Shown here: positions 10,911 to 28,793 of the stretch, piece by piece
Numbering within the stretch: position 1 is the stretch's first letter
Layout: every line of letters starts with the position of its first letter
From: Eubacteriales bacterium
Lineage (GTDB): Bacteria; Bacillota; Clostridia; Oscillospirales; CAG-272
Length of the DNA: 37,144 nucleotides
Reading direction: 5' to 3'
Assembly: GCA_045633385.1 (NCBI GenBank)
Contig: JAZQYE010000225.1
Location: 1 to 37,144 of the forward strand
Position numbers and translations under genes: made by a program
The notes under the pieces: model-generated
Told to the model about the DNA's origin: nothing
Databases searched by the model: none
What the model saw: only the letters and a program-made list of their open reading frames with translations

Positions 10911-10917
10911 TACATTA

Positions 10918-13673: not shown

Positions 13674-13702
13674 ATTATAGCACAACGTTGCCCGTCTTGC
13701 AA
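13674..13702 (-). promoter_or_regulatory. Promoter of the kinase/regulator operon
   Basis: On the minus strand: TTGCAA (13697-13702), 17-nt spacer, TATAAT (13674-13679), preceded by TGTGC. Confidence 0.55.
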
Positions 13703-13761
13703 GACCTTGGCACAACTTATTCTGCTTTGTTTGTTAAAATAGCGGTAACGGCTGTTTGCTT

Positions 13762-13835
13762 AAAAAAAAACGACAAAAAACAGAATTTTTTTGATTTTTT
13801 TGATTTTTTTTGATTTTTTGTAACGCTTTTGTAAC
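13762..13835. repeat. Phased homopolymer A/T tracts (A9, A6, then T7-GA, T7-GA, T8-GA, T6, T4)
   Basis: Read directly: AAAAAAAAACGACAAAAAACAGAATTTTTTTGATTTTTTTGATTTTTTTTGATTTTTTGTAACGCTTTTGTAAC. T-runs start at 13786, 13795, 13804, 13814 and 13827, a period of 9-10 bp. Confidence 0.85.
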
Positions 13836-13843
13836 CCGGAAGT

Positions 13844-13852
13844 TGATATAAT
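13844..13852 (+). promoter_or_regulatory. Extended -10 promoter candidate for the diguanylate cyclase gene
   Basis: TGATATAAT (TG at 13844-13845, TATAAT at 13847-13852). No good -35 is present; the upstream T-tracts could act as an UP-like element. This leaves a leader of about 150 nt. Confidence 0.4.
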
Positions 13853-14005
13853 ATAGCTTATTATGGGTTCAACGAACGTATCGTTAACGTGTAAGCACCA
13901 CGGTTACGCGGTGTAAACGTAAGCTTTGAGAATTCGTTTCAAACGCAGGTCGGCAGGATAAGCGCCTGCTTTTACCGCGATTTACAAAAGAGGGGAGGGC
14001 ATTTT

Positions 14006-15580
14006 ATGAAATCCATAAAAAGCAAAATTCTTTTTATTGTTATTTTTGCTTTGGTTACGGTATCGGCTTCAGTTGGTTTTGTCAGTTATTATTTAACGCA
14101 TGAGATCATGCACAATAACGCAGATGAAATGTTAGATTTAGTCAGCCATGAAAAGGCAGCTGACGTTAACTCCATTCTGCAAAGTATGGAGGATACGGTG
14201 CATTTTGTCAATATTTATGCAACGGCACTGTTGTCGGACGTGGAACAACTTCAGGATATAGACTTTTTAACGCGTTATACGCAAGACCTCGAAAGCGTAT
14301 TTACAGAGGCAGCGAAAGAGACCGAGGGTGTCGTTGGTTATTATTTTCGACTTGCCCCCGAGCTGAGCACGCCTCGCTCCGGCTTCTTCTATGACAAGAG
14401 CGCGATTGGAGGTGCCTTTAAGGTTCAGCAGGTCACCGACCTTTCGCAGTACGCCCCCGACGACCGCGAGCACGTGGGCTGGGATTATGAGCCCCTGCAG
14501 GCAGGCAAGGCGATTTGGATGGAACCGTACGATAACCTCAATAACGGCATTCGTATGATCTCCTACGTCATTCCCGTGTACTGTGACGGCACGTTTATCG
14601 GCGTTTTGGGAATGGATCTTGCGTTCGATTTTCTGGCAGCCACTATCGACGATATTTCGGTTTACAAAAGCGGCTTTGCTTATTTGAGTGATGACGAGGG
14701 AGAACTTGTTTACAGCTCACGGGAGATTGGCGACGATGTGGAGAACGGTCGTTCTACTTATACCGAGGCTTCTGCTATGCTGGATAACGGAATGAGGCTG
14801 ACCGTTCGTGTAGGATATCAGGACATCCAGGGAGAGAGTCGCATTCTGTTGCAGAGTATTATTATTATCGACAGCATTCTTGCCGTCGTTTTCATTCTCG
14901 CCACGATCTATTGTGCCGACCATATCATCAAGCCGCTCAAAAAGCTGACCAAAATGGCAAAGGCGTTGGTGGATGGCGAAAAGATCACCGAATTGGCAAG
15001 CGACGCCAAGGACGAGGTGGGAATCCTTTCCCGCATCTTTATGGAGACTTCCGAAAAGCTGCAGGAAAACATGAGCTACATTACGGCGTTGGCATACCGC
15101 GATACCTTAACGGGGGTTAAGAATACCACCGCTTATAACGAAGCGATTGCCGACGTAGAAAAGCAGATGAATTGCGGTCGCCCGCAGTTTGGTGTGCTTG
15201 TGGCAGACGTAAACGATTTGAAGCTGGTCAACGATACCTACGGTCACGATGCGGGAAATCAAATGATCCAGCACGCCTCCCGTTTGCTGGGCGGTACCTT
15301 CCGTTACAGTCCGTTGTTCCGTATCGGCGGTGATGAATTTGCCGTTATTTTGACGGGCTTGGATTTTGAAAACTACCGTCAGCGACTCAAGCAGCTTGAC
15401 GAGATGTGCGAGCAGGACGTGATCCCGATCGACGGAACCGACATTTGTTTGTCGCTGGCAAGAGGCGTTGCAATTTATGATCCCGAAATTGACCGCACCT
15501 TTAACGACGTATTCAATCATGCCGATCAAGCCATGTATATGCATAAGCAGAGCATGAAGCAGTCGCAGAATGATATTTAA
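14006..15580 (+). CDS. Membrane sensor diguanylate cyclase (Cache-like ectodomain, HAMP, GGDEF)
   Basis: RBS GGGGAGGG. TM1 at aa 9-30, a periplasmic region of about 250 aa with Cache-like blocks (WMEPY, MISYVIPVY.DGTFIGVLGMD), TM2, HAMP (IIKPLKKLTKMA), RDTLTGVKN and an intact RIGGDEF (GGDEF at 15326-15340). No RxxD I-site occupies the canonical position. Confidence 0.9.
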   Translation: MKSIKSKILFIVIFALVTVSASVGFVSYYLTHEIMHNNADEMLDLVSHEKAADVNSILQSMEDTVHFVNIYATALLSDVEQLQDIDFLTRYTQDLESVFTEAAKETEGVVGYYFRLAPELSTPRSGFFYDKSAIGGAFKVQQVTDLSQYAPDDREHVGWDYEPLQAGKAIWMEPYDNLNNGIRMISYVIPVYCDGTFIGVLGMDLAFDFLAATIDDISVYKSGFAYLSDDEGELVYSSREIGDDVENGRSTYTEASAMLDNGMRLTVRVGYQDIQGESRILLQSIIIIDSILAVVFILATIYCADHIIKPLKKLTKMAKALVDGEKITELASDAKDEVGILSRIFMETSEKLQENMSYITALAYRDTLTGVKNTTAYNEAIADVEKQMNCGRPQFGVLVADVNDLKLVNDTYGHDAGNQMIQHASRLLGGTFRYSPLFRIGGDEFAVILTGLDFENYRQRLKQLDEMCEQDVIPIDGTDICLSLARGVAIYDPEIDRTFNDVFNHADQAMYMHKQSMKQSQNDI

Positions 15581-15627
15581 AGGTTTTGAAAAAACTTGCA
15601 AAAAAATGCATTTTTTTACAAAAGCTA

Positions 15628-15656
15628 TTGACTTTTTCCATGGAATGTATTACAAT
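15628..15656 (+). promoter_or_regulatory. Sigma-A promoter driving the riboswitch-controlled operon
   Basis: TTGACT (15628-15633), 17-nt spacer, TACAAT (15651-15656). Confidence 0.65.
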
Positions 15657-15667
15657 ATAGGAAATTG

Positions 15668-15755
15668 ATTATTTTGGCAAATCTGTCGAAAGGCAGAGAC
15701 GCAAAGCTTGGTGGCTAAGCAAAGGATATTTGTATGCTCGACCGGTTGCAAACTG
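15668..15755 (+). promoter_or_regulatory. Cyclic-di-GMP-I (GEMM-I, Rfam RF01051-type) riboswitch aptamer
   Basis: GGCAAATCTGTCGAAAGGCAGAGACGCAAAGC (15676-15707) matches the invariant GEMM-I core: GGCAAA, a hairpin capped by a GAAA tetraloop, then GACGCAAAGC. The second hairpin carries a tetraloop-receptor-like GCTAAG...TATGC. Confidence 0.85.
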
Positions 15756-15784
15756 TTTTTGTTTTGCAACCGGTCTTTTATTTT
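15740..15784 (+). terminator. Intrinsic terminator forming the riboswitch expression platform
   Basis: 13-bp perfect stem GACCGGTTGCAAA (15740-15752) / TTTGCAACCGGTC (15763-15775), 10-nt loop, then TTTTATTTT. The 5' arm overlaps the 3' strand of the aptamer. Confidence 0.85.
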
Positions 15785-15802
15785 GAAAGGATGTGACCCA
15801 GA

Positions 15803-16501
15803 TTGAACCGAGTGTATCGGGAAGAGAAAAAGTTTTTGATCAACGTTGAAGATTTCCGCAGGCACGCACATCACCTGGAGCAGGTCTTAACACAGGACGA
15901 ACACAACGGCGCATTCGGTTACCGCGTTCGGTCGCTGTATTTTGATACGATATACGATAACGATTATTTTGAAAAGCTGGACGGCGTGGAGCTGCGGCGA
16001 AAGATCCGTCTTCGTATTTACGATCCGAGCAACGACTTTGCACTGTTGGAAATGAAGCAAAAGCAGGGGCAATATCAGCTCAAGCGCTCGCTCCGAGTCA
16101 CACGCGCGGATGCCGAGGAGCTGATCATGGGCAATTACACGCCGCTTTTAAAATACCGCGAGGATTTTGCCGCCGAGTGCTACGCGTTGATGCAGTCGCA
16201 GATCTATCGCCCCAAAACGGTGGTGGAATACAACCGCAAGGCGTTTGTGGCAAAGGAGAACAAGATCCGCATCACCTTTGACAATCAGATCGTATCTACC
16301 GAGAGCGATTGGAATATTTTTGCCAAGGATCTGAACATGAACGCCGTGCTGGATCCCTTCCACGTGGTGTTGGAGGTCAAATTCAACGGCTTTTTGCTGG
16401 ATTATATCAAGGATCTTTTGGCAAGCACGCAAAAAAGCGAGCTTTCTGTCAGTAAGTATATGCTTGTACGCCAAGCATCATATAAATACAACGTATTATA
16501 A
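15803..16501 (+). CDS. VTC-domain protein (PF09359-like, polyphosphate-polymerase / CYTH-like tunnel fold)
   Basis: 232 aa with a TTG start (alternative GTG at 15812). YREEKKFLI, YRVRSLYFDT, ELRRKIRLRIYD and LEMKQKQG match the conserved basic-tunnel strands of VTC domains. No TM segment or signal peptide. Confidence 0.8.
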   Translation: MNRVYREEKKFLINVEDFRRHAHHLEQVLTQDEHNGAFGYRVRSLYFDTIYDNDYFEKLDGVELRRKIRLRIYDPSNDFALLEMKQKQGQYQLKRSLRVTRADAEELIMGNYTPLLKYREDFAAECYALMQSQIYRPKTVVEYNRKAFVAKENKIRITFDNQIVSTESDWNIFAKDLNMNAVLDPFHVVLEVKFNGFLLDYIKDLLASTQKSELSVSKYMLVRQASYKYNVL

Positions 16502-16519
16502 CAAGGAGTTTACAGTAGC

Positions 16520-17197
16520 ATGAATGACAAGATTTTAGAGCTGTTTGGGGGACAAAATAATTTGACCTGGCAGGTTATTTTGATGAATATCCTGTTTTCT
16601 GCCTTTTTGGGCGTAATCATTTACCTCTCTTATTACCTGACGCATCGCGGAACCATTTACAGCAAAAAGTTTAACGTTTCGCTGGTGGTGCTCACCGTTC
16701 TCACGGGTACGGTCATGACGGTCATCGGCAACAACCTGGCGCTCTCGCTCGGTATGGTCGGTGCGCTCTCTATCGTTCGTTTCCGTACGGCGATCAAGGA
16801 TGCGCGCGATACGATGTATATCTTTTGGGCGATCATCGTTGGTATCTGCTGCGGTGTCAGCGACTTTTTGGTATCCTCCATCGGCAGTGCCGTTGTTTTT
16901 CTCATTCTGTTTATCTTCCATTCGATCAAAAACGACAAGAGAATGCTGTTGATCATTCGTGCAAAGCGCGATCTCGGCGAGCCGATCCAAGCCGCAGTAT
17001 TCAATTTGTTTGACCGCAAGGCTGTTTTGCGCGTGCGCAACACCACACAGGATCGCGTGGAGATGATCTACGAGATCTCCTCCGAGCTGTTGCAACACGC
17101 CGAAAGAGGTAAGCACAGCGTATGCGATAAGATCTATGAGCTTGGCGAGATCGAATACGTCAACATCGTCATGCAAAACGACGAGATCTCCGGTTGA
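16520..17197 (+). CDS. DUF4956-family integral membrane protein
   Basis: 225 aa with 4-5 hydrophobic segments. GALSIVRFRTAIKDARDTMYIFWAIIVGICCG is the hallmark DUF4956 block. The soluble C-terminal tail is about 90 aa. Confidence 0.8.
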   Translation: MNDKILELFGGQNNLTWQVILMNILFSAFLGVIIYLSYYLTHRGTIYSKKFNVSLVVLTVLTGTVMTVIGNNLALSLGMVGALSIVRFRTAIKDARDTMYIFWAIIVGICCGVSDFLVSSIGSAVVFLILFIFHSIKNDKRMLLIIRAKRDLGEPIQAAVFNLFDRKAVLRVRNTTQDRVEMIYEISSELLQHAERGKHSVCDKIYELGEIEYVNIVMQNDEISG

Positions 17198-17201
17198 TTG
17201 A

Positions 17202-18689
17202 ATGAAATACCGTATTTTAGGAATTGTGATCGCGCTCTCCCTGTGTCTTTCCGTGTTTGGTGCATTTGCGTATGCACAGTATCAGCCAACGGGGAACGGG
17301 ACGCGATACCATCAGCATTTGGAGGCAGAGCAAAAGCCTGCCTGCGAGCATACCGACGGCAGCTTTTGTACGCACTTGCCCTTGATCGAGATCAATACCG
17401 AGGGTGGGGAAGAGGTGCCCGGTAAATTCTATATTGACGAAAACCAAAAGGAGCAACCGACCCTTTCCGCAAGCGGCGAAACCTACGTGATGGCAAGCGT
17501 CAATATTTTTGATAACGCCACGCAAAACAATCACCTGACCGATGCGGCAAGCGACACGGGAAGCGTGCGCATCAAGGTGCGCGGAAACTCCTCGCGCTAC
17601 CACGATAAGCTCGGATACACTCTGACCTTTGTGGATGAGGCAGGCGAAAACGAATCCCACGCCGTTATGGGCATGGACGCACACCACGAGTGGGCAATGC
17701 ACGGCCCTTTTCTGGATAAAACGCTCATTCGCAACTATATGTGGTACAACATTTCGGGCGAGCTGATGGACTATGCGCCCAACGTCCGCTTTTGCGAGGC
17801 GTTTCTCAACGGCGAATACATTGGCGTGTACGTGATGGTGGAGACCATTACGGCAGGGCAGGTGGCGGACTCGCGCCTGGATCTGTCGGTTCAAAAAAAG
17901 GATCAGACCTTTACGGGCTACTGCATTCGTATGGACCGCGGAAGCTCCGAGCTGAAGAATCTGGACACCTTTTTAAACTACACCCTGCGCAATCGGCAGA
18001 CCATTGATATCGTATATCCCGGAACCTCCAATCTCACGCCCGAGATCAAGCGTGCGATCGAGCAGGATTTTTCTCACTTTGAGCGCAACTTGTACTCCTT
18101 TGACTACGGCGACGAGACCTACGGCTACCCGAGCTTTATCGACGTTGATTCCTTTGTGGATTATTTTTTGATCAACGAGTTCACCTCAAACTACGATGCG
18201 GGCTGGCTCTCGACCTACGTTTACAAGGATATTGACGGCAAGCTTGACCTGTGCGTATGGGATTTTAACTCGGCGTGCGATAACTACAAGGACGGCGCAA
18301 TGGATCTGACCGATTTTCAAACGCATTATCAACTATGGTTCGTTATGCTGGTCAAATCTCCCGAATTTACCGAGCGGATCATCGAGCGGTACAAGGAGCT
18401 GCGCCGTACCTATTTCAGCGAGGAGTATCTCAACCGCTACATCGAACAGACCGTTGCGTATCTGGGAGATGCGGTCGAGCGCAATTTTGAAAAGTGGGGC
18501 TACACCTTTGAGGAGGGCAATGGACTGCTCGTTCCCGCAGAGCGCAACGTTCACTCCTACGAGGAGGCGTTGGAGCAGCTGCGCTCCTACATTGAGGTGC
18601 GCGGAGAATGGATGGATGCCAATATCGACAGCCTGCGCCAATACTCGAGCGAATCCAGAAACAAAAAACAAAACGAATCGAGGCGGTGA
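17202..18689 (+). CDS. CotH-family atypical kinase-fold protein (PF08757-like), secreted or membrane-anchored
   Basis: Starts 4 nt after the previous stop. N-terminal signal/anchor MKYRILGIVIALSLCLSVFGAFAYA. IKVRGNSSR, DKTLIRNYMWY, LNGEYIGVYVMVE and VWDFNSACDN match CotH family blocks. Confidence 0.85.
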   Translation: MKYRILGIVIALSLCLSVFGAFAYAQYQPTGNGTRYHQHLEAEQKPACEHTDGSFCTHLPLIEINTEGGEEVPGKFYIDENQKEQPTLSASGETYVMASVNIFDNATQNNHLTDAASDTGSVRIKVRGNSSRYHDKLGYTLTFVDEAGENESHAVMGMDAHHEWAMHGPFLDKTLIRNYMWYNISGELMDYAPNVRFCEAFLNGEYIGVYVMVETITAGQVADSRLDLSVQKKDQTFTGYCIRMDRGSSELKNLDTFLNYTLRNRQTIDIVYPGTSNLTPEIKRAIEQDFSHFERNLYSFDYGDETYGYPSFIDVDSFVDYFLINEFTSNYDAGWLSTYVYKDIDGKLDLCVWDFNSACDNYKDGAMDLTDFQTHYQLWFVMLVKSPEFTERIIERYKELRRTYFSEEYLNRYIEQTVAYLGDAVERNFEKWGYTFEEGNGLLVPAERNVHSYEEALEQLRSYIEVRGEWMDANIDSLRQYSSESRNKKQNESRR

Positions 18690-18697
18690 TCTGAGAC

Positions 18698-20866
18698 ATG
18701 AAAAAATATCTGATACTTGTCGCCGTACTGATCGCACTCGTTTTGCTCGGAGACGCGCTTTATTACCGCGTGGGACTGTATATTCCTTGCAGTACCAATG
18801 AGCCGGTCAGCGTGATCTCCAAGATCGAGGACGGGCAGATCACGCAAAAAAAGCCCGACGGCAGCTACGAGATCATTGAGATCAAGGGCGTGAATATGGG
18901 TTCGGGTGTTCCGGGCTACTGGTCCACCGAGTTCCATATTGACAAGGAGACCTATTTGCGTTGGTTTGGTATGATCCAGGATATGGGGGCAAACGTTATT
19001 CGCGTTTACACCATTTTGTCGGAGGATTTTTACAACGCCTTTTACGAGTACAACAACGGGCGTGAGGAGCCGCTGTATCTGATCCAAGGCGTTTGGGTCA
19101 ACGATTACGTGCTGAACTCGCACCACAACATTTACGACGATGCTTTTTGTGAAAACTTTTACACCCACTGCAAAACGGTGGTGGACGTGATTCACGGAGA
19201 AAAAAAGATCTATAAAAATCAATTGCACAGTGCCGGCTACGGCTCTTACCTCAACGACGTTTCGGATTGGGTGCTGGGCTATATCTGGGGCGTTGAATGG
19301 GAGGACCTGACGGTTGCCTATTCCAACGACTATTACAAGGAGCAATCCGAATACAACTCCTATGCGGGAAAGTATCTGTCTTCCTCCGAGGACGCAAACG
19401 CCTTTGAGGTCATGCTTACCATGGTGGGCGACCGCACGCTCGAGTACGAGATGAAGCGCTACCGTGAGCAACGCGTGTTTGCATTTTCCAACTGGGTGAC
19501 TACCGACCCCTTTGATTATCCCGAAGAGGTCGCACGGCAGTTTTCCAAGTGTAGCAAGGTGGATATCGAAAACATTCAATGCAGTAACGAGGTTTTGTCG
19601 GGTCAGTTTGCATCCTACCACGTTTACCCCTACTATCCCGACTATTTGAATCTGTTCAGCGACGAGGAGTGGGAAACGCTTGAGATCGGAGACCGCTCCC
19701 TGTACGCCACCGAGGACGGCAAGACCAACACCTATCTTGCCTACCTGCAATGCCTGACCAATTACCACACCGTTCCCGTGCTGATTTCTGAGTTTGGCGT
19801 TTCGACGGGTCGCGGCATTGCCCAAATCGACCCCAACACGGGCAGAAACCAGGGTAATATGTCCGAGCAGGAGCAGGGCGAGGCTTTGGTCTCCTGTTAT
19901 CAGGATATTATGAAGAGCGGCTGTATCGGCGGTTGTGCCTTTATCTGGCAGGACGAGTGGTTCAAGCGTACGTGGAATACCATGTACTCGGTCGATCTCG
20001 AACGCACGCCGTATTGGTCGGATTATCAAACAAACGAGCAATACTTCGGTCTGCTTTCCTTTGACCCCGGCGAGGAGAAAAGCGTTTGCTACGTGGACGG
20101 TGATATTTCGGAATGGACCGAGCGTGACGTTGTTGCGCAAAACGCCGACGGCAGCAGTATTTCGATGAAGTACGATGAAAGATTCGTATATCTGATGGTG
20201 AAAAAGAGCGGATTTTCGATCGATAACGACAAGCTCTATATCCCCATTGACACCACGCAAAAGTCGGGAAGCAACTATGCCGCAGGCGAGAACGTTAAAT
20301 TTGATCGCGCCGCCGACTTTTTGCTGGTGCTGGACGGAAAAGAGAACTCGCGCTTGCTGGTGCAGGAGCGTTATGAAGCACTGCGCGCCAACTATTCCAA
20401 AGAGGTGTACGGCTTTAACACCTATTACGAGGGCAACGTTCCCGCCGCAGATTCGCCGCAATTTCGCGAGATCTATCTTGTTTTGCAGCTGGAGTCGGAG
20501 GAGGGAACCGAAAACAGCAAATTCCATACGGGTCTTTTGACCTACGGAAATGCAAATCCCGTTTCGGACGAGTTTAATTCGCTTGCCGATTTTTGCGCAG
20601 GTGACGGCTACGTTGAGATCAAGCTCCCGTGGCAGCTGCTCAACTTTATGGATCCTTCCCGTATGATGATCCATGACGATTACTACGAGCACTACGGTTT
20701 GGAGGCAATTGCAATCGACCGTATTTATCTTGGTCTTGGCGACGGTACGGAATCGCGTATCGAAATGAAAGACACCAAATTGAAGGCGTGGGATAACAAG
20801 GTAACCTCCCACGAGCGCCTCAAGGCGTCTTATTACATCTTACAAGCCTTTTGGAAAGAGGACTAA
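18698..20866 (+). CDS. Membrane-anchored extracytoplasmic (beta/alpha)8 glycoside-hydrolase-like protein (clan GH-A-like motifs)
   Basis: 722 aa. N-terminal TM anchor LILVAVLIALVLLG. IKGVNMG, MGANVIRVYTI, CSNEV...SYHVYPYYP and LISEFGVS follow the order of GH-A strand-end motifs (NE acid/base, H-x-Y, E nucleophile). The family was not identified. Confidence 0.7.
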   Translation: MKKYLILVAVLIALVLLGDALYYRVGLYIPCSTNEPVSVISKIEDGQITQKKPDGSYEIIEIKGVNMGSGVPGYWSTEFHIDKETYLRWFGMIQDMGANVIRVYTILSEDFYNAFYEYNNGREEPLYLIQGVWVNDYVLNSHHNIYDDAFCENFYTHCKTVVDVIHGEKKIYKNQLHSAGYGSYLNDVSDWVLGYIWGVEWEDLTVAYSNDYYKEQSEYNSYAGKYLSSSEDANAFEVMLTMVGDRTLEYEMKRYREQRVFAFSNWVTTDPFDYPEEVARQFSKCSKVDIENIQCSNEVLSGQFASYHVYPYYPDYLNLFSDEEWETLEIGDRSLYATEDGKTNTYLAYLQCLTNYHTVPVLISEFGVSTGRGIAQIDPNTGRNQGNMSEQEQGEALVSCYQDIMKSGCIGGCAFIWQDEWFKRTWNTMYSVDLERTPYWSDYQTNEQYFGLLSFDPGEEKSVCYVDGDISEWTERDVVAQNADGSSISMKYDERFVYLMVKKSGFSIDNDKLYIPIDTTQKSGSNYAAGENVKFDRAADFLLVLDGKENSRLLVQERYEALRANYSKEVYGFNTYYEGNVPAADSPQFREIYLVLQLESEEGTENSKFHTGLLTYGNANPVSDEFNSLADFCAGDGYVEIKLPWQLLNFMDPSRMMIHDDYYEHYGLEAIAIDRIYLGLGDGTESRIEMKDTKLKAWDNKVTSHERLKASYYILQAFWKED

Positions 20867-20891
20867 AACGTGATTTTGGAAAGGAGCTATT

Positions 20892-22157
20892 ATGATTGAA
20901 ACACTGCTATGGATCTATATTGCGGTCTGTTTGTCGCTGATTTTTTTTCAATGCCTGTTTATTGCAATCATCGCGCTCCGTTCCTATTTTGACCGTCGCG
21001 TGATAGAGCGCAGGTATCGGGAGATCGTCGGTCAGCTTGAGCGGATCTCCCTCAACCAGCCCGTTGCCGACGAGCATCAAAGCTTTTTGAAAAAAGAGCT
21101 CTTTCTTACCCCTTCGCTCTATTGCTACGAAAAGGCGTTGCGTCGGGTGTTTGACGAGATTGAAAACGGTACGCTTGCTTTGCGCGACCCGAACGAGATC
21201 ACAAACGTGATCATCGATATTCGTCACCGTGCCAAAAAAGGGGACGAGAGATCCAGAGGACACTCTAAGATCCGCATGAAGCTGCGCCCCAAAAAGTCGC
21301 TGATCCAACCGCTTGCCAAGGAGCTTGCGGAGCGCTATTTGGGTGAATATGTTCGCCAAACCGCCCCTGCCATCGTTTCTTTGACCGCATCCTATCGCAA
21401 AAAGGACAATATCGTTCACCTGTTTTACATATTCATGCTCAAAAAGTACGGCTATTTACGCCATTGCTACACGTCTGAGCTGGTTGCAAATTTGCGCGAT
21501 TTGTTAGACGACGGCGATTCGGTTTGCGCCGAGGGAATCCTGTTGGCAGTGTATCAGATCGGAGATCCCCACATTACGCTGGACGTTTTACGGCAGGTCG
21601 ATCAAATAGACCGATTCCTGCACCCCAAAATCGTCAGTGACGGATTGCTTTCGTTTGCGGGCGATGCGCTGTCTTGGCAAAAGCTGATGCTGGAGCACTT
21701 GCACGAGTTTTCGGAAACGATGCAGGTCAATCTGCTCAACTACCTGCGCTTTGCGTCGGGTGACCACTGCGAGCGCGTTTTGCAGATGCTTCAAAACGAA
21801 GAGACTTATGACGAGGTGCGTTTTTCCTGCATTCGTTATTTCGGCAAATATCCCTATGAGCCCGCTTACGATCTGCTTGCCGCGTTTGCCGCAGGCATTC
21901 CCGAACAGCGCATCGAATACGCTATCGTTGCGCTTGCCGTTCTCCGACGCTACCCGCGTCAGCGAACGATCGATATTTTGCGTGCACAAATCGGCAGCTT
22001 CAATTGGTTCGTTCGTTACAACGCGACCGAAAGTCTGGAGACCCTTGGCATCGAATATCAGGATCTGGTCGATATTTTTGACGGTAAGGATCGCTTTGCA
22101 AGAGATATGCTGCAATATCAATTCGACCAAAGATATATTCTTGACGGGGAGGTTTGA
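20892..22157 (+). CDS. Membrane-anchored hypothetical protein with HEAT/PBS-lyase-like repeats (tentative)
   Basis: RBS AAAGGAG. N-terminal TM LLWIYIAVCLSLIFFQCLFIAIIAL. Helical-repeat character, e.g. NWFVRYNATESLETLG resembles the VRxxAAxALG HEAT-like unit. Confidence 0.7.
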   Translation: MIETLLWIYIAVCLSLIFFQCLFIAIIALRSYFDRRVIERRYREIVGQLERISLNQPVADEHQSFLKKELFLTPSLYCYEKALRRVFDEIENGTLALRDPNEITNVIIDIRHRAKKGDERSRGHSKIRMKLRPKKSLIQPLAKELAERYLGEYVRQTAPAIVSLTASYRKKDNIVHLFYIFMLKKYGYLRHCYTSELVANLRDLLDDGDSVCAEGILLAVYQIGDPHITLDVLRQVDQIDRFLHPKIVSDGLLSFAGDALSWQKLMLEHLHEFSETMQVNLLNYLRFASGDHCERVLQMLQNEETYDEVRFSCIRYFGKYPYEPAYDLLAAFAAGIPEQRIEYAIVALAVLRRYPRQRTIDILRAQIGSFNWFVRYNATESLETLGIEYQDLVDIFDGKDRFARDMLQYQFDQRYILDGEV

Positions 22158-22159
22158 GA

Positions 22160-23575
22160 GTGAAATACGATTTTATCAACGCCGTGGCGGAATTTTTAAA
22201 GGGTATTACGGTTGGCTACGGTACGTATCTTGTTCTTTATTCCACCTTTCTGTTCGTTGCGGTCATCGTAGGTGCGCTGGTTCTGTATTACCGTAATAAG
22301 CGCATGCGGTACCAGAACGTAGTGGAGAATGAGTATCAGATCCCCATTACCATCGTCGTTCCCGCTTATAACGAGGAGGTCACGGTCGTAGAGACGGTAA
22401 AGTCTCTTTTGACGCTTGAGTATCGCTCCTACGAGATCATCGTTGTGGACGATGGCTCCAAGGATAATACCTCGGGCGTTTTGCGCGAGGCATTCGATAT
22501 GCACCCCGTGCGCCGACCGATCCGCAAGCAGATACCCTGTAAGGACGTTGACACGATTTACGAGTGCTTTACCGAAAAGGTTCCGCTCGTGCTGGTCAGA
22601 AAGATCAACGGCGGAAAGGCAGACGCCTTGAATATGGGAATCAACGCCTCCAGATTTCCGTACTTTATTTGTATGGACGCCGACTCCGTTTTGCAGGCAG
22701 ATTCCTTAATTCGCATTACCCGTCCCGTAATCGAAAACGACGATATCGTTGCCGTTGGCGGCGTGGTACGTCCCTGTAACGACGTCGAATTGGAGGGCGG
22801 ACGCGTCAAGCACTATCAGCTCCCCAAAAACCTGGTGGCTTGTATGCAGGTCGTGGAGTACGACCGCTCGTTTTTGGCTACCCGTATCCTCTTTGACCAA
22901 TTCAACGGCTCTCTCATTATTTCGGGCGCGTTTGGATTGTTCAAAAAAGAAGCCGTCATTGCCGTGGGTGGCTACGACAGCAAAACGATGGGTGAGGATA
23001 TGGAGCTTGTAGTCGATCTTCACAAATACTGTACGGCAAACAAAAAGCCCTACGCGATCAAGTATGCAACCGATGCGGTTTGCTGGACGCAAGCTCCCGA
23101 ACGCTTAAAGGACCTTTGTAAGCAACGCAAGCGTTGGCATCTCGGACTTTTTCAAACGCTGATGAAGCATCGCTCCATGGCAACCGATTTCAAAAGCGGC
23201 CCCGTCAGCTTTATTTCCTATGCGTATTTCTTTATTTACGAGTTTTTGTCACCCTTTATCGAGTTTTTCGGCTTGATCGTTACGTTCTTATCTCTTGTTG
23301 CCAAGCTGATCAACTTTAAATTCTTTTTGATGTTTACCGCAATTTACGCATTGTTTGGCGCGGCACTGACGCTGACCTCGTTTTTTGCGCGAACACAGAC
23401 CTCCGAGATCAAGCTGACCGTGCGCGACGTTGCAAAAGCGGCTTTGATGTGTTTGCTGGAGATCGTTTTTATGCACAACGTTATGACGTACGTGCGCGCC
23501 ACCGCCTTTATCGGCTACCGTAAAAAGAAGCTGCAATGGGGACGGATCGAGCGAAAGAAAATCAACTTAAAGTAA
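22160..23575 (+). CDS. Processive family-2 glycosyltransferase (IcaA/PgaC/BcsA-like polysaccharide synthase)
   Basis: ORF track 22154..23575 (TTG). GTG 22160 is preferred (GGGGAGG 7 nt upstream). VVDDGSKDNT, CMDADS, GEDMEL and QRKRW (23123-23137) form the D,D,D,QxxRW signature. N-terminal TM plus about four C-terminal TM segments; no PilZ domain. Confidence 0.88.
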   Translation: MKYDFINAVAEFLKGITVGYGTYLVLYSTFLFVAVIVGALVLYYRNKRMRYQNVVENEYQIPITIVVPAYNEEVTVVETVKSLLTLEYRSYEIIVVDDGSKDNTSGVLREAFDMHPVRRPIRKQIPCKDVDTIYECFTEKVPLVLVRKINGGKADALNMGINASRFPYFICMDADSVLQADSLIRITRPVIENDDIVAVGGVVRPCNDVELEGGRVKHYQLPKNLVACMQVVEYDRSFLATRILFDQFNGSLIISGAFGLFKKEAVIAVGGYDSKTMGEDMELVVDLHKYCTANKKPYAIKYATDAVCWTQAPERLKDLCKQRKRWHLGLFQTLMKHRSMATDFKSGPVSFISYAYFFIYEFLSPFIEFFGLIVTFLSLVAKLINFKFFLMFTAIYALFGAALTLTSFFARTQTSEIKLTVRDVAKAALMCLLEIVFMHNVMTYVRATAFIGYRKKKLQWGRIERKKINLK

Positions 23576-23587
23576 GGAGGAGAGACC

Positions 23588-26500
23588 ATGCAAAACAAAC
23601 GGCTTTTATGGCTTATGCCGATGATGATCGTCCTGCTGATCTCCATGCTTACGGTTACGGCGGGTGCCGCGGTTTCCTTTTCCGAGGAGAACCGAGGCGA
23701 CAGTCAAAGCGTGTTTATTGCGGGCAACCCCGACCTGTATCCCATCGAATACTTCAACCCCAATACCAAACGCTACGAGGGCGTAATGCCGATTTTGTTC
23801 GAGCGTATTTCCGAGGAGTGCGGACTTGATTTTACCTACATCTACGCATCTGCCGAAAACAAGCAGCAGTATCTGGCGCAAAACGGGCAGGTAGATATCG
23901 TATCCGCGTACGTCAACGATCGCATCGATACGCAGTACGTTCCGCAGGAGAGTGCGTTGCTTCACTTTACCTATAACGGGCGCACCCAAACGGCAGTCAT
24001 TGGCTTTACGTCGGTTTGTGACCAAACGGTAAAAGAGAAGATCAGTACGTATCTGGAGGCGTTGAGCGAGGAGGAGCTGACGGCAATTACCGTTTCCTAC
24101 GTTATGACGCACCAAAGAGAGAGCGCCAAAAACGCATGGATCTTGCCAACCGTTATCGCGGTGATATTGGTCGCGCTTGTCGTTTTGGGCTTGCTGTTCT
24201 ACCGCAATCAAAAGAGGACGGTGGAGCAAAAAAAAATCAACCCCAAAAGCGGACTGTACAACAAGAGCTATCTGGACGTTATTTTGTATTCCTTGATCCA
24301 CGATTTCGTCCGCAAGCGCTATTATGCGGTTTACGTCTCCGCAAATTATGAAAACCTGCTCAAATACTACACCAAGCCCCAATTGGTCGCGCTGTCGGAT
24401 TATATATCGCGCACCTTGCAGGCTGAATTGCAGGATCGCGAGTTTGGCATTCACGTAGGTGAAGACGTTACCTTTTTGCTGTTGATACAAGCCCCCAATC
24501 AGGGGCAGGCAGAGCAAAGGGTTGACGCGCTGATTCAAAGGCTGAACCTTGAAAACGAGATCTTGAGCGACGATTATCGCGTAACGATCTCGGCAGGCTG
24601 TTACGGACTTTCGCAGGCACGCGAGAGCGGCGAACGCATTCTCGACGTAACGAGCGAGGCATATCTTTACGCCGAGGAAAACGCGCTTCGGTACTTCTTT
24701 ATCGACCCTGTATTCCTGAAGCGGGTGGATCGTAAGGCGCTTTTGCAAAAGGAGACCGTTCAAGCGATCAAAAAGGATCAGATCCTGTTCTATCTGCAAT
24801 ATATTGTGGATATTCAAAGAAACGTCATCATCGGTGCAGAGTCGCTCTCCCGTTGGGAGCACCCGCGTGAGGGACTGCTGTTCCCGGGGGCTTACATACA
24901 GCTGATGCAGCACGCAAACAACATTCATTTGTTGGATTTTTACATGCTTGAAAAAAGCTGTCAACAGCTTGCACGCTGGAACACGGACGAAGCGAACGGC
25001 TTGAAGATCTCCTGCAACTTTGACCGACAAACCGTTGCACGGGAAGATTTTTACGACCGTGTCATGGAGATCACCGAAAAATACGGCGTCGATCGCAGTC
25101 GCCTCGTTTTGGAGATCACCGAGGATACCTTTGTTTACAACAAAGAAAACGTGATGCAAAACACGGGCAGACTGCGTAAGGAAGGCTTTAACATAGCCCT
25201 TGACGATTTTGGCAGGGGAAGCTCTTATTTCCAGAATCTGATCGAGTATCACGTCTCCCTTCTCAAGCTGGATCGCATCTTCGTTGCCATGATGAAGACC
25301 GCGCCCGGCGAAACGCTCATCCGCGGAATCGTAACGGCGGCGCACGATCTTGGACTCCACGTACTGCAAGAGGGCGTAGAGACCTACGCAGAGCTGCAAA
25401 CGTGCAAGGCGTTTGGCATTGATATGGTGCAGGGCTTTGTGTTCTCCCGCGTCATTCCCGGCATCGAGGGCGATCGCGTCAGACGCCGTTTGGCTGCTCG
25501 TCTGTTGGAGGAGGGCGCACCCCAAAACAGCTTGCAGACCTATGCCGACGTCAACCCCGACGCCGAGGAGGATAACGTTTACGAGGACGATGACGAGGAG
25601 GGAAGCGCTTACGGTACGCGCTACCGTTGGAGCTTTTTGGCTCGTTTGCACCGCGCTCCCGAGGAGATCGCCGGTTACTATTCGGAGCTGAAGAACGCAT
25701 TTTTGAAATACAAAAAGGTTCGTTCCCGTATCAGCTGGAGCTACGATACCGTCAGCTATCGCCACGCACCTGCGGCAAAATTCGTCATGCGTCAAAAATC
25801 CTTGTTGCTCTATCTTGCTCTGCCGCCCGCAGAATTTGAGGAAAGCAAGTATTTCTTTGTAGATGCATCCGAAAAGAAGAAATACGAGCAGGTTCCGCTT
25901 CGCTTAAAGATTCGCGGCAGCCGCGGCTTTAAGCACGCCTTGGAGCTGATCGAGGAGCTTGCCAAGCGGCTGGAATGGAAGGAACAGACCGATTTTACCG
26001 CACAGGATCACACCTTGCCGTTCAAAACGGTAGAGGAGCTGATCGAGGTAAAGCTGATCAAAATAAACGGCAAGGCACTTGCCGTAGAGGAGCTTCCCGC
26101 ACCGCAAAAGGTGCAAAGCAACATTTCTTATCAAGCACCGAATTTTTCAATTGTAGAGCCTGTTAAAGAGGAAACATCAATGGAGGAAAATACCATGGAA
26201 AACAATTCGACCATTACGCAAAATATTGCGGACTTTATTTACGGTACCTATTACCGTTGGAGCTTTACCGCACGCCTGCACCAAGCGCCCGAAAACGTTG
26301 CCGAGTATTACAACGATATCAAAAATGCCTTTTTGCGCTACAAAAAGGTCAAGTCGCGCATCAGCTGGAGCTGTGATACCATTACGTTTGGCAAGGAGCA
26401 GCTTGCAAAATTCGTGCTGACGCAAAAAACGCTGTACGTATATCTGGCACTCTCTCCCAAGGACTTGGAGGGAACCAAGTACTTCTTTACCGACGAGTCG

Positions 26501-27214
26501 GATATCAAAAAGTACGAAAAGGTTCCGGTTCGCGTGCGCGTTCGCAGTGAGCGCGGTGTGAAGTACACCATCGAGCTGATCGAAAAGATCGCCGCTCTCA
26601 AGGATCTGCAGCTTGCAAAGAACTTTGAGGTCACCGATTTCACGCTCCCGCACGAAAACGTTGAAACGCTGTTGGATCGTCAATTGATCAAAAAGATCGA
26701 TTTGATCGAATCCGTCGTGGTCTCCGAGGAGGAGAGCGAGGAGGAGAGCGTAGCGGCTGCTGCCGTTTTGGAGGAGGCACCCGTTGAGGAAGCACCTGCC
26801 GAGGAGCCGGTCGTTGAGGAAGCACCCGTCGAGGAAGCACCCGTCGAGGAGCCGGTCGTTGAGGAGGCACCCGTCGAGGAAACGCCTGTAGAGGAGCCGG
26901 TCGTTGAGGAGCCCGTTGTGGAAGAAACTCCCGTTCAGGAGCCCCCCGTTGAAGAGCCGGTACAGGAAGAGCCCAAAGCAGAAGAGACCGTTCCTGCGCA
27001 AGCAACGTTCACCGTGGTTGAGGAAACGCCCGCAGAGCAGATTCAAAACGCGGATCTTGCCGAGGCTGAGACCATTCACGTTGCCTTCCTGCAAAAGCTT
27101 TGCCAGCAGTTTGACGCCGACGAATTAAACGCGCACGTCAAGGTGATCTACAAAAAGAAGAGAGAAAAGAAGACGAGTATCTTCGACATCATCATGAAGA
27201 AGAACCGCTCTTGA
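23588..27214 (+). CDS. Multidomain c-di-GMP signalling protein: SBP-like ectodomain, TM, degenerate GGDEF, EAL, two copies of an unassigned module, acidic EExPV repeats
   Basis: RBS AAGGAGGAG. Signal/TM followed by IAGNPDLYPIEYF (type-3 solute-binding-like) and a TM at aa 184-205. The GGDEF position reads VGEDV (24455-24469). The EAL domain has ESLSR (24839-24847), CNF, EITE, DDFGRGSS, KLD, EGVET and QGF all present. Confidence 0.9.
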   Translation: MQNKRLLWLMPMMIVLLISMLTVTAGAAVSFSEENRGDSQSVFIAGNPDLYPIEYFNPNTKRYEGVMPILFERISEECGLDFTYIYASAENKQQYLAQNGQVDIVSAYVNDRIDTQYVPQESALLHFTYNGRTQTAVIGFTSVCDQTVKEKISTYLEALSEEELTAITVSYVMTHQRESAKNAWILPTVIAVILVALVVLGLLFYRNQKRTVEQKKINPKSGLYNKSYLDVILYSLIHDFVRKRYYAVYVSANYENLLKYYTKPQLVALSDYISRTLQAELQDREFGIHVGEDVTFLLLIQAPNQGQAEQRVDALIQRLNLENEILSDDYRVTISAGCYGLSQARESGERILDVTSEAYLYAEENALRYFFIDPVFLKRVDRKALLQKETVQAIKKDQILFYLQYIVDIQRNVIIGAESLSRWEHPREGLLFPGAYIQLMQHANNIHLLDFYMLEKSCQQLARWNTDEANGLKISCNFDRQTVAREDFYDRVMEITEKYGVDRSRLVLEITEDTFVYNKENVMQNTGRLRKEGFNIALDDFGRGSSYFQNLIEYHVSLLKLDRIFVAMMKTAPGETLIRGIVTAAHDLGLHVLQEGVETYAELQTCKAFGIDMVQGFVFSRVIPGIEGDRVRRRLAARLLEEGAPQNSLQTYADVNPDAEEDNVYEDDDEEGSAYGTRYRWSFLARLHRAPEEIAGYYSELKNAFLKYKKVRSRISWSYDTVSYRHAPAAKFVMRQKSLLLYLALPPAEFEESKYFFVDASEKKKYEQVPLRLKIRGSRGFKHALELIEELAKRLEWKEQTDFTAQDHTLPFKTVEELIEVKLIKINGKALAVEELPAPQKVQSNISYQAPNFSIVEPVKEETSMEENTMENNSTITQNIADFIYGTYYRWSFTARLHQAPENVAEYYNDIKNAFLRYKKVKSRISWSCDTITFGKEQLAKFVLTQKTLYVYLALSPKDLEGTKYFFTDESDIKKYEKVPVRVRVRSERGVKYTIELIEKIAALKDLQLAKNFEVTDFTLPHENVETLLDRQLIKKIDLIESVVVSEEESEEESVAAAAVLEEAPVEEAPAEEPVVEEAPVEEAPVEEPVVEEAPVEETPVEEPVVEEPVVEETPVQEPPVEEPVQEEPKAEETVPAQATFTVVEETPAEQIQNADLAEAETIHVAFLQKLCQQFDADELNAHVKVIYKKKREKKTSIFDIIMKKNRS
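25610..26695 (+). repeat. Intragenic tandem duplication with a 630-nt (210-aa) period
   Basis: Copy 1 starts at 25610 (YGTRYRWSFLARLHRAPEE...KNAFLKYKKVRSRISWSYDT). Copy 2 starts at 26240 (YGTYYRWSFTARLHQAPEN...KNAFLRYKKVKSRISWSCDT). About half the residues are identical across roughly 150 aa, and synonymous sites have diverged. Confidence 0.85.
26771..26986 (+). repeat. 15-nt tandem repeat encoding about 14 EE(A/T/P)PV pentapeptides
   Basis: GAGGAAGCACCCGTC / GAGGAGCCGGTCGTT units in frame: EEAPV EEAPA EEPVV EEAPV EEAPV EEPVV EEAPV EETPV EEPVV EEPVV EETPV QEPPV EEPVQ EEPKA. Confidence 0.9.
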
Positions 27215-27262
27215 TCTGCCAAAGCTTTCCACCTTCATCAAGTAAAAGGAGCGTAAGCCAAC

Positions 27263-28525
27263 TTGAAAAAGCATTTATTATTGATTGTAATTTGTTTTGC
27301 ATTGTTACTGACATCATTTGGTTGTACGGCCGATTCCACAGAAACCGAGAGCACGCAAACGCCTTCGCAAACTACCAAAGATCCTTCGTTGCAGGAGACG
27401 ACCGATCCCTCCGTTGATCAAGAGCCGACCGCCAAAGCCATTTGGCAGGACGCCAATAACGTCGTTCTTCTTTGGAGCAACGAGGCAAATCACGAGTACA
27501 GCATCTACCGAAGCAACAGCCCCGAGGGGAGCTTTGCGTATCTCGGCAAGAGCTTGACGGGCTCTTACCGCGATGCCACGGCAACCTATCCAAACGCGTA
27601 CTACTACAAAATAAAAGACAAAGATCTTAAAACACAGCAGGTACGGGAGCTTGAGCCGATCGGCGCGGTCGTTGCGCCCGAGGAGGTGGACTCTGTCAGC
27701 GTGATCATGTATCACAATTTTGTCAGCCAAGAGGATATCGAAAACGGCATTGAGTTTGAGGAATATTCCATCTCTCCCGCCGATTTTGAAGCGGATCTGA
27801 TCTGGCTGAAGGAAAACGGCTACGTTACCATCACGTCAAGAGAGCTGTTGTATTATCTGGAGAACAAAGAGCCCATTCCGCAAAAGGCGGTCATTCTGTC
27901 TATCGATGACGGCTCGTGGGGCGTATATACCAACGCTTGGCCGCTCTTGAAAAAGCACGGCATGAAGGCGGATTTCAACGTCATCGGCGCGCAGATCGAT
28001 GCTACGTGGGAGCTGCTTCATTCTGGCGGAACGCGAGAGGGCGAGCCCGCACCTTTTTGCACGTGGGAGGAGCTGATCGAAATGCAGCAAAGCGGAGAGA
28101 TTAACGTATGCTCCCATACCTACGGTATGCACGTGTATAACAAAGAAAAGCGCGTGGGCATGAGCATGATGGAAAACGAGACCCCCGAGGCGTTTGCACA
28201 AGCCGTTCAAAAGGACTACAATCTGGTTTTGAGCTGCATGGAGGGCTGGACGGGCATTATGACCGAAACGGTGGCTTATCCCTACTCCAAGAGGAGCGCG
28301 ACGGGTGACCGTATCGTTTTGGAAAACACGGGGTACAAAATTTTGATGGCGGGAAACGGCGCCAGAGGCACGGCAGGGAACTACTTTGTCAGGGGCTGTG
28401 ATTTTGTCAATCAGCTCACGCTCATGAGCCGCCCGTGCCGAATGGACGGAACCCCCATCAGCGTCTATCTTGAAAACATTCAAGTAAGGGATGCAAAAAA
28501 CGGAGTCAACGTTTCGAATGCGTAG
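27263..28525 (+). CDS. Polysaccharide deacetylase (CE4, IcaB/PgaB-like) lipoprotein with an N-terminal FN3-like module
   Basis: TTG start. MKKHLLLIVICFALLLTSFGC lipoprotein signal. VIMYHNF, SIDDGSWG (TFDDG-type motif) and CSHTYGMH (H-S/T-x-x-H motif). Confidence 0.85.
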   Translation: MKKHLLLIVICFALLLTSFGCTADSTETESTQTPSQTTKDPSLQETTDPSVDQEPTAKAIWQDANNVVLLWSNEANHEYSIYRSNSPEGSFAYLGKSLTGSYRDATATYPNAYYYKIKDKDLKTQQVRELEPIGAVVAPEEVDSVSVIMYHNFVSQEDIENGIEFEEYSISPADFEADLIWLKENGYVTITSRELLYYLENKEPIPQKAVILSIDDGSWGVYTNAWPLLKKHGMKADFNVIGAQIDATWELLHSGGTREGEPAPFCTWEELIEMQQSGEINVCSHTYGMHVYNKEKRVGMSMMENETPEAFAQAVQKDYNLVLSCMEGWTGIMTETVAYPYSKRSATGDRIVLENTGYKILMAGNGARGTAGNYFVRGCDFVNQLTLMSRPCRMDGTPISVYLENIQVRDAKNGVNVSNA

Positions 28526-28607
28526 TGGCTTAAAGACGAGGGCAGTGCCTGCATTGATAGCCCGATGCATTGGTTATACAAATGAGAAATCGGCACGATA
28601 AAACAGA

Positions 28608-28655
28608 AGAGAGAGTAACACGGAAATAAGGACCGTGAAGCTCTCTCTTTTTTTT
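28608..28655 (+). terminator. Intrinsic terminator closing the 8-gene operon
   Basis: AGAGAGAG (28608-28615) pairs with CTCTCTCT (28641-28648). An inner CACGG/CCGTG stem is present, followed by a T8 run. Confidence 0.8.
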
Positions 28656-28764: not shown

Positions 28765-28793
28765 TTGACATTTCAGGTATATTGTGCTATAAT
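28765..28793 (+). promoter_or_regulatory. Consensus sigma-A promoter of the giant surface-protein gene
   Basis: TTGACA (28765-28770), 17-nt spacer ending TGTGC, TATAAT (28788-28793). Confidence 0.7.

Follow-up and report, generated by a model that had tools for sequence, protein, structure and literature searches.

A widespread gene cassette of Clostridia places a VTC-DUF4956-CotH triad beside a c-di-GMP-linked GT2 synthase module

Gram-positive operons for the exopolysaccharide Pel have a set of contiguous accessory genes: cotH, a polyphosphate polymerase gene, and genes for DUF4956 and DUF4832 proteins (Whitfield 2020, PMC7112168). Streptococcus intermedius makes less Pel and aggregates less when the gene for its CotH or its DUF4956 homologue is deleted, and the same 2025 study states that the synteny of the VTC-DUF4956-CotH triad was not found outside Pel loci (PMC12345266). 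A separate line of work concerns NELoc-2 (CP4_0460-0468), a locus of Clostridium perfringens necrotic-enteritis strains, whose six-gene core was listed by Lepp et al. in 2010 (PMC2879425). Here we analyse a stretch of 37,144 nucleotides from a Eubacteriales bacterium of the CAG-272 lineage (GenBank assembly GCA_045633385.1, contig JAZQYE010000225.1, positions 1 to 37,144), hereafter the window, in which this triad stands in an eight-gene operon together with a GT2 synthase and genes for cyclic di-GMP (c-di-GMP) turnover. The operon is one copy of a widespread, uncharacterised cassette and no isolated oddity; parts of it have been glimpsed twice, in the two literatures above, which it joins for the first time. 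The cassette most likely builds a surface sugar polymer.

The eight proteins, named p1 to p8 in gene order, are a VTC-domain protein, a DUF4956 membrane protein, a CotH-family kinase, a large membrane-anchored protein that serves as the marker of the cassette (p4), a HEAT-repeat protein, a GT2 synthase, a GGDEF/EAL protein and a CE4 deacetylase. The likeness to NELoc-2 is direct: the core order VTC-DUF4956-CotH-hypothetical (~700 amino acids, aa)-HEAT-GT2 is identical and the sizes match (VTC 232/230 aa, membrane protein 226/222, CotH 497, hypothetical 685, HEAT 377, GT2 466). The orthology is read from the published gene table (PMC2879425, Table 4), not from sequence. There are also differences. 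NELoc-2, which is chromosomal and has signs of mobility, carries a doubled VTC/DUF4956 pair that a resolvase interrupts, and a sigma factor upstream; its published gene list includes neither EAL nor CE4, and no riboswitch has been reported. In vivo, two NELoc-2 genes show lowered expression. The 2010 listing calls the DUF4956 protein 'tubulin/FtsZ' and gives the GT2 the label 'chitin synthase' (PMC2879425); both are mis-annotations.

The likeness to Gram-positive Pel loci is of another kind. There the same triad is contiguous with a synthase-dependent exopolysaccharide operon that also has a glycoside hydrolase-like accessory enzyme, and in bifidobacterial Pel loci a cyclase/phosphodiesterase gene takes the slot of that enzyme. 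However, the Pel machinery itself (PelF, a GT4 enzyme, with PelG, PelD, PelE and PelA) is unrelated to the GT2, HEAT and p4 proteins found here. None of the eight proteins matches PelF, PelG, PelD (GAF and degenerate GGDEF), PelE or PelA, which rules out that the operon is a Pel locus. An earlier sequence-based description of the window (the original prediction) had held that no characterised system couples the two modules, and thereby overlooked both the Pel accessory triad with its S. intermedius knockouts (PMC7112168, PMC12345266) and NELoc-2 (PMC2879425). For the cassette as such, no study of function turned up in open-access papers and bioRxiv, which were searched on DUF4956, on the VTC domain together with riboswitches and on CotH together with c-di-GMP.

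To describe the distribution, one genome per species was scanned for p4. At least 600 loci were found in species-representative genomes, mostly of gut and rumen Clostridia, and 80 of them, from many Clostridia families, were kept for comparison. Homologues of p4 number more than 4,468 in a 90%-clustered collection, and in a 50%-clustered library 571 representatives are found at E <= 1e-30. Of the 80 loci compared, 58 are complete, and every one of these is collinear in the order VTC-DUF4956-CotH-p4-HEAT-GT2-EAL; the triad is present in 60 of the 61 loci with enough flank, and HEAT, GT2 and EAL together in 55 of 59. Recurrent co-occurrence of the two modules in other genomes had been set beforehand as a test of the proposed system, and it is what we observe. 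What emerges is a strictly conserved surface-polymer cassette, present at no fewer than these 600 loci, that lacks a functional description and whose marker protein lacks a Pfam family.

More distant relatives have other arrangements. A Planococcus maritimus plasmid has VTC-DUF4956-CotH-p4-HEAT-GT2 and no EAL gene, while pRadio2 of Deinococcus radiophilus has only a TPR-p4 fusion, HEAT and GT2. In Paenibacillus cellulosilyticus a c-di-GMP-I riboswitch is followed by p4, a p4 paralogue, HEAT and GT2, and there is no triad. Since p4-HEAT-GT2 persists without the triad in the last two, we regard it as the ancestral synthase module and the triad as a separable add-on. These relatives confirm that the two modules named in the original prediction can be separated. 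Further, the triad is portable and serves Pel as well as GT2/HEAT, so at least two synthases that are unrelated to each other. It is therefore not specific to Pel, and the present cassette contradicts, and corrects, the 2025 statement that the synteny of the triad is confined to Pel loci.

Besides the window and its relatives, the cassette or its six-gene core is carried by C. perfringens necrotic-enteritis strains, Zongyangia hominis NSJ-54 and Planococcus maritimus XJ11. In one related locus (L066:6221-6877) a resolvase gene lies immediately 5' of the cassette, comparable to the resolvase within NELoc-2; together with the plasmid copy in Planococcus this suggests horizontal mobility of the cassette. 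The Paenibacillus copy (NZ_CP054613, positions 7506-16631 of the extracted locus L082) reads riboswitch, an unknown open reading frame of ~300 aa, p4, a 1033-aa p4 paralogue, HEAT and GT2, on a nearly unannotated replicon labelled a 2.7-Mb 'plasmid'. This triad-less core is a possible natural control for the function of the triad.

In the window, the eight genes are all on the forward strand and cover positions 15803-28525, with a promoter and a c-di-GMP-I aptamer on the 5' side and a strong terminator on the 3' side (Table 1). The intergenic gaps are 18, 4, 8, 25, -4, 12 and 48 nucleotides, and this spacing suggests a single transcript, that is, one operon controlled by the riboswitch. The transcription start predicted for the promoter is immediately 5' of the aptamer. 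In a consensus scan there is no terminator between any of the eight genes and no convincing one anywhere inside. The same scan finds 29 weak terminator-like matches within coding regions where 19.2 +/- 3.8 are expected, and weak promoter-like matches also occur inside the operon region.

Such weak matches, and the separability of the modules seen in Deinococcus and Paenibacillus, are what could be cited for the view that the two modules are unrelated chance neighbours, each expressed on its own. We consider this extremely unlikely: the presence of the triad and the collinear order extend over many Clostridia families and to Planococcus, while the gaps that separate the genes are 4-48 nucleotides and free of intergenic terminators.

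Table 1. Features of the operon, its leader and the adjacent cyclase gene in the window (forward-strand positions; aa, amino acids).
Feature	Positions	Strand	Evidence
Sensor diguanylate cyclase, dCache_1-HAMP-GGDEF, 524 aa	14006-15580	+	Pfam GGDEF 7e-26, dCache_1 4e-13
Sigma-70-type promoter, TTGACT-17-TACAAT	15628-15656	+	10/12 consensus matches
c-di-GMP-I (GEMM-I) aptamer, RF01051	15666-15753	+	72.6 bits vs gathering score 35, E = 1.6e-12, full model 1-87
Expression platform: terminator hairpin 15740-15775 and U-tract 15776-15784	15740-15784	+	Folding of leader
p1, soluble VTC-domain protein (triphosphate-tunnel, polyphosphate-polymerase-like), 232 aa	15803-16501	+	PF09359, 7e-41
p2, DUF4956 membrane protein, MgtC-like transmembrane region and cytoplasmic C-terminal domain, 225 aa	16520-17197	+	PF16316, 7e-13; weak MgtC match
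p3, exported CotH-family kinase, signal peptide ending AYA/Q, 495 aa	17202-18689	+	PF08757, 3e-58, 198.2 bits, profile 1-322 of 322
p4, membrane-anchored extracytoplasmic clan GH-A-like (beta/alpha)8 putative glycanase or transglycosylase with beta-sandwich, 722 aa	18698-20866	+	Profile and Foldseek
p5, N-terminal transmembrane helix and cytoplasmic HEAT/ARM repeats, 421 aa	20892-22157	+	HEAT_2, 3e-8
p6, integral-membrane GT2 synthase with QRKRW motif, 473 aa	22154-23575	+	Glycos_transf_2, 3e-26
p7, solute-binding-protein-like ectodomain, transmembrane helix, degenerate GGDEF and EAL, 1208 aa	23588-27214	+	Pfam EAL 1.6e-54, 185 bits
p8, CE4 polysaccharide deacetylase, probable lipoprotein of IcaB/PgaB type, 420 aa	27263-28525	+	PF01522, 1e-13
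Closing intrinsic terminator, 12-bp stem AGAAGAGAGAGU/GCUCUCUCUU, then U8	28605-28655	+	~-27 kcal/mol

In agreement with the original prediction, promoter, GEMM-I riboswitch and closing terminator are all present, and Pfam bears out its calls for the VTC, DUF4956, CotH, GT2 and CE4 domains. In other points it was partly right. The eight same-strand genes stand, while the gap range that it gave (-1 to 48 nucleotides) is too narrow, the smallest gap being a 4-nucleotide overlap; the claim of no internal terminator holds for intergenic and for convincing candidates, and is unproven in view of the weak matches within coding regions. Its inventory had the five domain families right and missed both the degenerate-GGDEF/EAL protein p7 and the cyclase gene upstream.

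The regulation of the operon can be read in some detail from its leader. Terminator and aptamer share sequence in the leader, the 5' arm of the one overlapping the 3' strand of the other, so the two structures compete. By default the leader folds into the terminator (-40.5 kcal/mol); when the aptamer is enforced the energy is -28.8 kcal/mol. A ligand-stabilised aptamer would exclude the terminator, and the leader would thus work as an ON switch by anti-termination. The overlap indicates that c-di-GMP, the predicted ligand, induces the operon, as had been proposed.

We searched the leaders of the relatives with a covariance model built from five aptamers. The aptamer is found on the operon strand directly 5' of the cassette in 42 of the 80 related loci, or 42 of the 66 that have enough upstream sequence, and nearly all of these 42 share the layout with an overlapping terminator. 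Its two-helix structure is kept by compensatory changes: in an alignment of 43 cassette-linked copies 92.7% of the cells are paired, and 17 of the 22 pairs show compensatory changes. As controls, none of 500 shuffles reached as high a value, and slid alignments were 16-42% paired.

The riboswitch is not a universal part of the cassette, as 24 of the 66 assessable loci lack the aptamer; RNA-level control by c-di-GMP is therefore common and not obligatory. Two such loci (L010 and L050) contain no other riboswitch class at the Rfam gathering threshold. The locus L081 is a close relative (69-93% protein identity to the window) and has no aptamer, which means that the riboswitch was gained or lost between near relatives. 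Its leader (L081:6823-7114) has the inverted repeats TGTTACAAA/TTTGTAACA in place of the aptamer; they may be a protein operator.

A likely origin of the signal lies next to the operon. Directly 5' of it, outside the coordinates covered by the original prediction, is the gene of a sensor diguanylate cyclase. From its translation, this cyclase has an intact RIGGDEF site and no RxxD I-site, and it is the probable source of the c-di-GMP signal. Same-strand upstream neighbours of the cassette in relatives are GGDEF proteins in 30 of 42 cases, while in L081 the cyclase gene is found 3' of the operon and not 5'.

At the other end of the circuit is p7. Its EAL domain (PF00563) is intact, with a complete set of catalytic and metal-binding residues: E418, R422, N477, E509/E512, D539/D540, K560, E595/E598 and Q615 are each kept in 56-62 of 62 orthologues. 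Phosphodiesterase activity is therefore predicted. Its GGDEF motif, on the other hand, is degenerate, and the 62 orthologues share no RxxD I-site. With an adjacent GGDEF cyclase and an EAL phosphodiesterase that would be co-transcribed with the synthase, the locus forms a complete c-di-GMP circuit. Cyclase, RNA switch and phosphodiesterase in one locus offer a compact model of local c-di-GMP signalling in anaerobes.

It is useful to compare this circuit with described c-di-GMP-dependent GT2 exopolysaccharide operons of Firmicutes. One is ydaJKLMN of Bacillus subtilis. Another is pssA-E of Listeria (PMC4125290). Like the cassette, both pair a GT2 gene with genes for a glycoside hydrolase and for a membrane protein that senses c-di-GMP, and both are induced or activated by c-di-GMP. 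However, they use a post-translational receptor, a degenerate GGDEF domain with an I-site, and a BcsB-like partner, whereas the cassette has an RNA switch, an intact EAL domain, a HEAT partner and the phosphate triad.

By analogy with these systems, the main role of p7 could be that of a c-di-GMP receptor or trigger enzyme, by which the synthase is activated post-translationally once ligand is bound (as with PelD, PssE, YdaK and LapD elsewhere), and not that of a feedback phosphodiesterase. A dedicated membrane receptor is what other Firmicute systems use, the GGDEF domain of p7 is degenerate, and its gene stands alongside that of the GT2 in the 55 of 59 loci counted above. Still, we find this rather unlikely: receptor-type EAL domains do not show the strong conservation of all catalytic residues seen here, an RxxD I-site is not conserved, and the six-gene core exists without p7 in Planococcus and NELoc-2.

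The p7 protein of the window is unusually long. Orthologues have a median length of 631 aa, which corresponds to residues 1 to ~640 of the window protein, and the remaining ~570 aa (residues ~640-1208, window 25500-27214) form a clade-specific C-terminal extension that is absent in most orthologues. It consists of two ~150-aa repeats (YRWSF..RLH.APE...YY...KNAFL.YKKV.SRISW...) followed by acidic and proline-rich repeats of the PVEE type, and has no Pfam match. The long form recurs in L081 (1199 aa).

In about 25 related cassettes a gene for a DivIVA-like coiled-coil protein of ~150-185 aa is inserted between GT2 and EAL (for example L004:9046-9510 and L006:14837-15298). The protein has the N-terminal motif LKKGFFGYKKxSVYxYI, and 13 of 26 copies match Pfam DivIVA. 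The window lacks this gene, its p6-p7 gap being the 12 nucleotides given above. The DivIVA-like gene hints at a polar or septal placement of the machinery.

These DivIVA-like genes, the role of CotH as a spore-coat kinase in Bacillus, the many spore-forming host taxa and the fact that GH72-like enzymes are wall transglycosylases could all be taken to mean that the product is a cell-wall-associated or spore-surface glycan and not a biofilm matrix polymer. We hold this to be quite improbable, because traits of sessility and matrix are the ones that typically come under c-di-GMP control with their own cyclase and phosphodiesterase, and because streptococci and bifidobacteria, where the triad works for Pel, form no spores. 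In general, we consider the regulatory logic and the assignment of the cassette to exopolysaccharide synthesis well supported.

The synthase module consists of p4, p5 and p6. For p6 the signature of a processive GT2 enzyme, QRKRW followed by C-terminal hydrophobic segments, can be read in the translation, and residues 64-415 align with BcsA. Its partner is probably p5. The stop codon of p5 overlaps the start of p6, by -4 in the window and by -4 or -1 in 44 of 69 relatives, and even Deinococcus, Paenibacillus and Planococcus keep p5 together with p4 and GT2. This points to p5 as an obligate, translationally coupled partner of the synthase.

The third member, p4, has no Pfam family even at E <= 5, which also rules out that it is DUF4832, the Pel accessory protein. 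A profile of p4 orthologues matches the GH157 endo-beta-1,3-glucanase 9FZ9 (E = 2.8e-5), and its invariant E365 (ISEFG) aligns to the catalytic E224 of LaGH157. The AlphaFold model is of moderate quality (pLDDT 65.7); its top Foldseek matches are GH157, GH5 and GH2, all from clan GH-A, with probability 1.0 but TM-scores of 0.28-0.37. A few p4 relatives show weak GH72 matches.

Which polymer is made is a separate question. The closest described systems for p6 and p8 are those for poly-N-acetylglucosamine (PNAG), icaADBC and pgaABCD, which likewise combine a processive membrane GT2 with Q(R/Q)xRW and an extracytoplasmic CE4 enzyme, and which give the best named matches of both proteins. For p6 the best named family is PgaC_IcaA (TIGR03937), at 152.6 bits against a cutoff of 422.3, with CelA at 42 and NodC at 32; for p8 the closest structures are IcaB (4WCJ, 9e-18) and PgaB/BpsB, and the scores against the PgaB and IcaB equivalogs, 110.8 bits (TIGR03938, cutoff 321.9) and 59.1 bits (TIGR03933, cutoff 248.35), are below both cutoffs. 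In contrast to the PNAG systems, the cassette lacks IcaD/PgaD, IcaC and PgaA, a HEAT-repeat protein stands in as partner, the hydrolase-like enzyme resembles clan GH-A and not GH153 or GH20, and most related cassettes have no CE4 gene. Where it was detected, beside only about 12 of the 80 cassettes, the position of the CE4 gene varies, so it is ruled out as a core component and is accessory.

A PNAG-like chemistry is therefore at best tentative, judged from these family matches. The earlier proposal of a PNAG-like glycan did not fare well, given the low GT2 score, the rarity of CE4 and a p4 that resembles beta-glucanases of clan GH-A instead of PgaB or dispersin; its more general part, that a synthase-type GT2 is encoded together with extracytoplasmic glycan-modifying enzymes, was right. 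A serious possibility, although we rate it below even, is that the polymer is a beta-glucan or chitin-like glycan and that deacetylation is an option used in some lineages. It would agree with GH157 and GH5 as the best matches of p4, with the occasional GH72 matches, with the scarcity of CE4 and with a GT2 that falls below the PgaC/IcaA cutoff and also matches Chitin_synth_2. Two observations speak for PNAG instead: PgaC_IcaA is by far the best named GT2 family, and the CE4 of the window is closest to IcaB and PgaB.

The remaining three proteins form the phosphate triad. The VTC domain of p1 scores 140.7 bits against a Pfam cutoff of 23, and a profile of its family matches yeast Vtc4 (3G3Q, E = 2e-4). 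K10, R69/R71 and K85 of p1 align to K200, R264/R266 and K281 of Vtc4 and are invariant in 27 orthologues. From these tunnel residues p1 is predicted to be polyphosphate-polymerase-like in activity. As in the yeast VTC complex, the tunnel-domain family and its catalytic Lys and Arg are kept, and a catalytic domain is paired with a membrane component. The differences are that p1 is a stand-alone soluble protein of 232 aa, a VTC domain with neither SPX nor a Vtc-type transmembrane channel, and that its membrane partner is the MgtC-like DUF4956 protein, unrelated to the transmembrane domains of Vtc. The p2 gene adjoins the VTC gene in most relatives, and where the two are split the insert is a CE4 gene.

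The family profile of p3 matches B. cereus CotH (5JD9, 1e-5). Two of its residues, D332 (SNYDAG; at least 90% conserved) and D354 (VWDFN; invariant), lie in motifs like QNxDG and WDxD. Their spacing of 22 compares with 23 for the catalytic D228/D251 of B. subtilis CotH, in a region where the alignment to 5JD9 is poor. Searches of the PDB with the single p1 and p3 sequences gave no match, so that orthologue profiles were needed for both.

Taken together, we think it probable, though with clear reservations, that the cassette is a self-contained, c-di-GMP-controlled, synthase-dependent exopolysaccharide system. In this scheme the adjacent dCache-HAMP-GGDEF cyclase would raise c-di-GMP, which would stabilise the GEMM-I aptamer, sequester the 5' arm of the terminator and allow read-through into the operon. 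The GT2 protein p6 and its membrane-anchored HEAT partner p5 would then polymerise and export a beta-linked glycan, in the window probably one that contains N-acetylglucosamine. Outside the cell, membrane-anchored p4 would trim or transglycosylate the glycan and the CE4 enzyme p8 would partly de-N-acetylate it. The proteins p1 and p2 would act with the exported kinase p3; our best guess is a surface phosphoryl-transfer or polyphosphate step on which full polymer output or matrix assembly depends. Finally, p7 as a co-transcribed sensor phosphodiesterase would degrade c-di-GMP and so act as a local sink or in negative feedback. Gene content, aptamer, competing terminator, conserved catalytic residues and synteny are directly shown; which polymer is made, what the phosphate module does chemically and that p7 acts in feedback we infer.

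Several observations weigh against this scheme. The aptamer is absent from the 24 assessable relatives mentioned above, the close relative L081 among them, and the single transcript is deduced from gene spacing. The GT2 and the CE4 are both far under the equivalog cutoffs of PgaC/IcaA and PgaB/IcaB, and the absence of CE4 from most related cassettes, together with a beta-glucanase-like p4, means that the polymer may not be PNAG-like. We know of no bacterial VTC-domain protein that has been shown to make polyphosphate. Further, the only activity known for CotH is that of a protein Ser kinase with ATP as donor (PMC7821199 for the Ser kinase role).

For the triad, two more specific ideas should be considered. 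The first, which we regard as unlikely, is that VTC and DUF4956 form a minimal bacterial polyphosphate synthase/translocase that brings polyphosphate to the outside of the membrane, where it would either replace ATP as the donor with which exported CotH phosphorylates the nascent glycan or itself be an anionic cross-linker of a cationic, partly deacetylated polymer. If true, a portable module would turn a Pel or a GT2/HEAT polymer into a composite matrix of phospho-glycan and polyphosphate, and would do so widely in gut Clostridia.

The second is that the triad is a regulatory protein-kinase module, in which CotH phosphorylates the ectodomains of p4, p7 and p8, or matrix or host proteins, while VTC and DUF4956 only tune the phosphate or energy status. 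The characterised CotH proteins are protein Ser kinases (PMC7821199), regulation of Pel by phosphorylation was proposed by Whitfield et al. (PMC7112168), and DUF4956 has a region like that of MgtC proteins, which are regulators. On balance it seems improbable to us, since travelling with two unrelated synthases fits better with a shared substrate class or matrix role, and since the invariant Vtc4-type catalytic residues imply real tunnel-enzyme chemistry. The cassette is a defined system for asking how an exported kinase obtains its phosphoryl donor outside a Gram-positive cell.

Antisense open reading frames are found opposite p4 (18587-20812, reverse strand, 741 aa) and p7 (23606-25795, reverse strand, 729 aa), and neither is a gene. 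They are open because the codons TTA, CTA and TCA are nearly absent in the sense frames (one in p4, five in p7).

The DNA around the operon encodes several surface and sensory proteins. On the 3' side a perfect sigma-70 promoter with a TG element (TTGACA-17-TATAAT, 28765-28793, forward strand) lies ahead of a giant forward-strand frame, which starts at 28839 and runs off the window end (37144). It encodes at least 2,768 aa, with a signal peptide, Gly-rich repeats and BspA-type leucine-rich-repeat domains. Two reverse-strand frames in this region (30444-31628 and 31911-36188) have no Pfam match and are ruled out as genes, being shadows of the giant gene. On the 5' side an open reading frame of 739 aa without a Pfam family (4036-6255, forward strand) is located 3' of a HAD hydrolase gene. 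BspA-type surface proteins are also encoded at 335-3349 (forward strand) and 9393-10856 (reverse strand), which with the giant gene makes three in 37 kb. Divergent from the cyclase gene is a two-component pair (10993-13640, reverse strand), a His_kinase/HATPase sensor of 624 aa and a response regulator of 258 aa.

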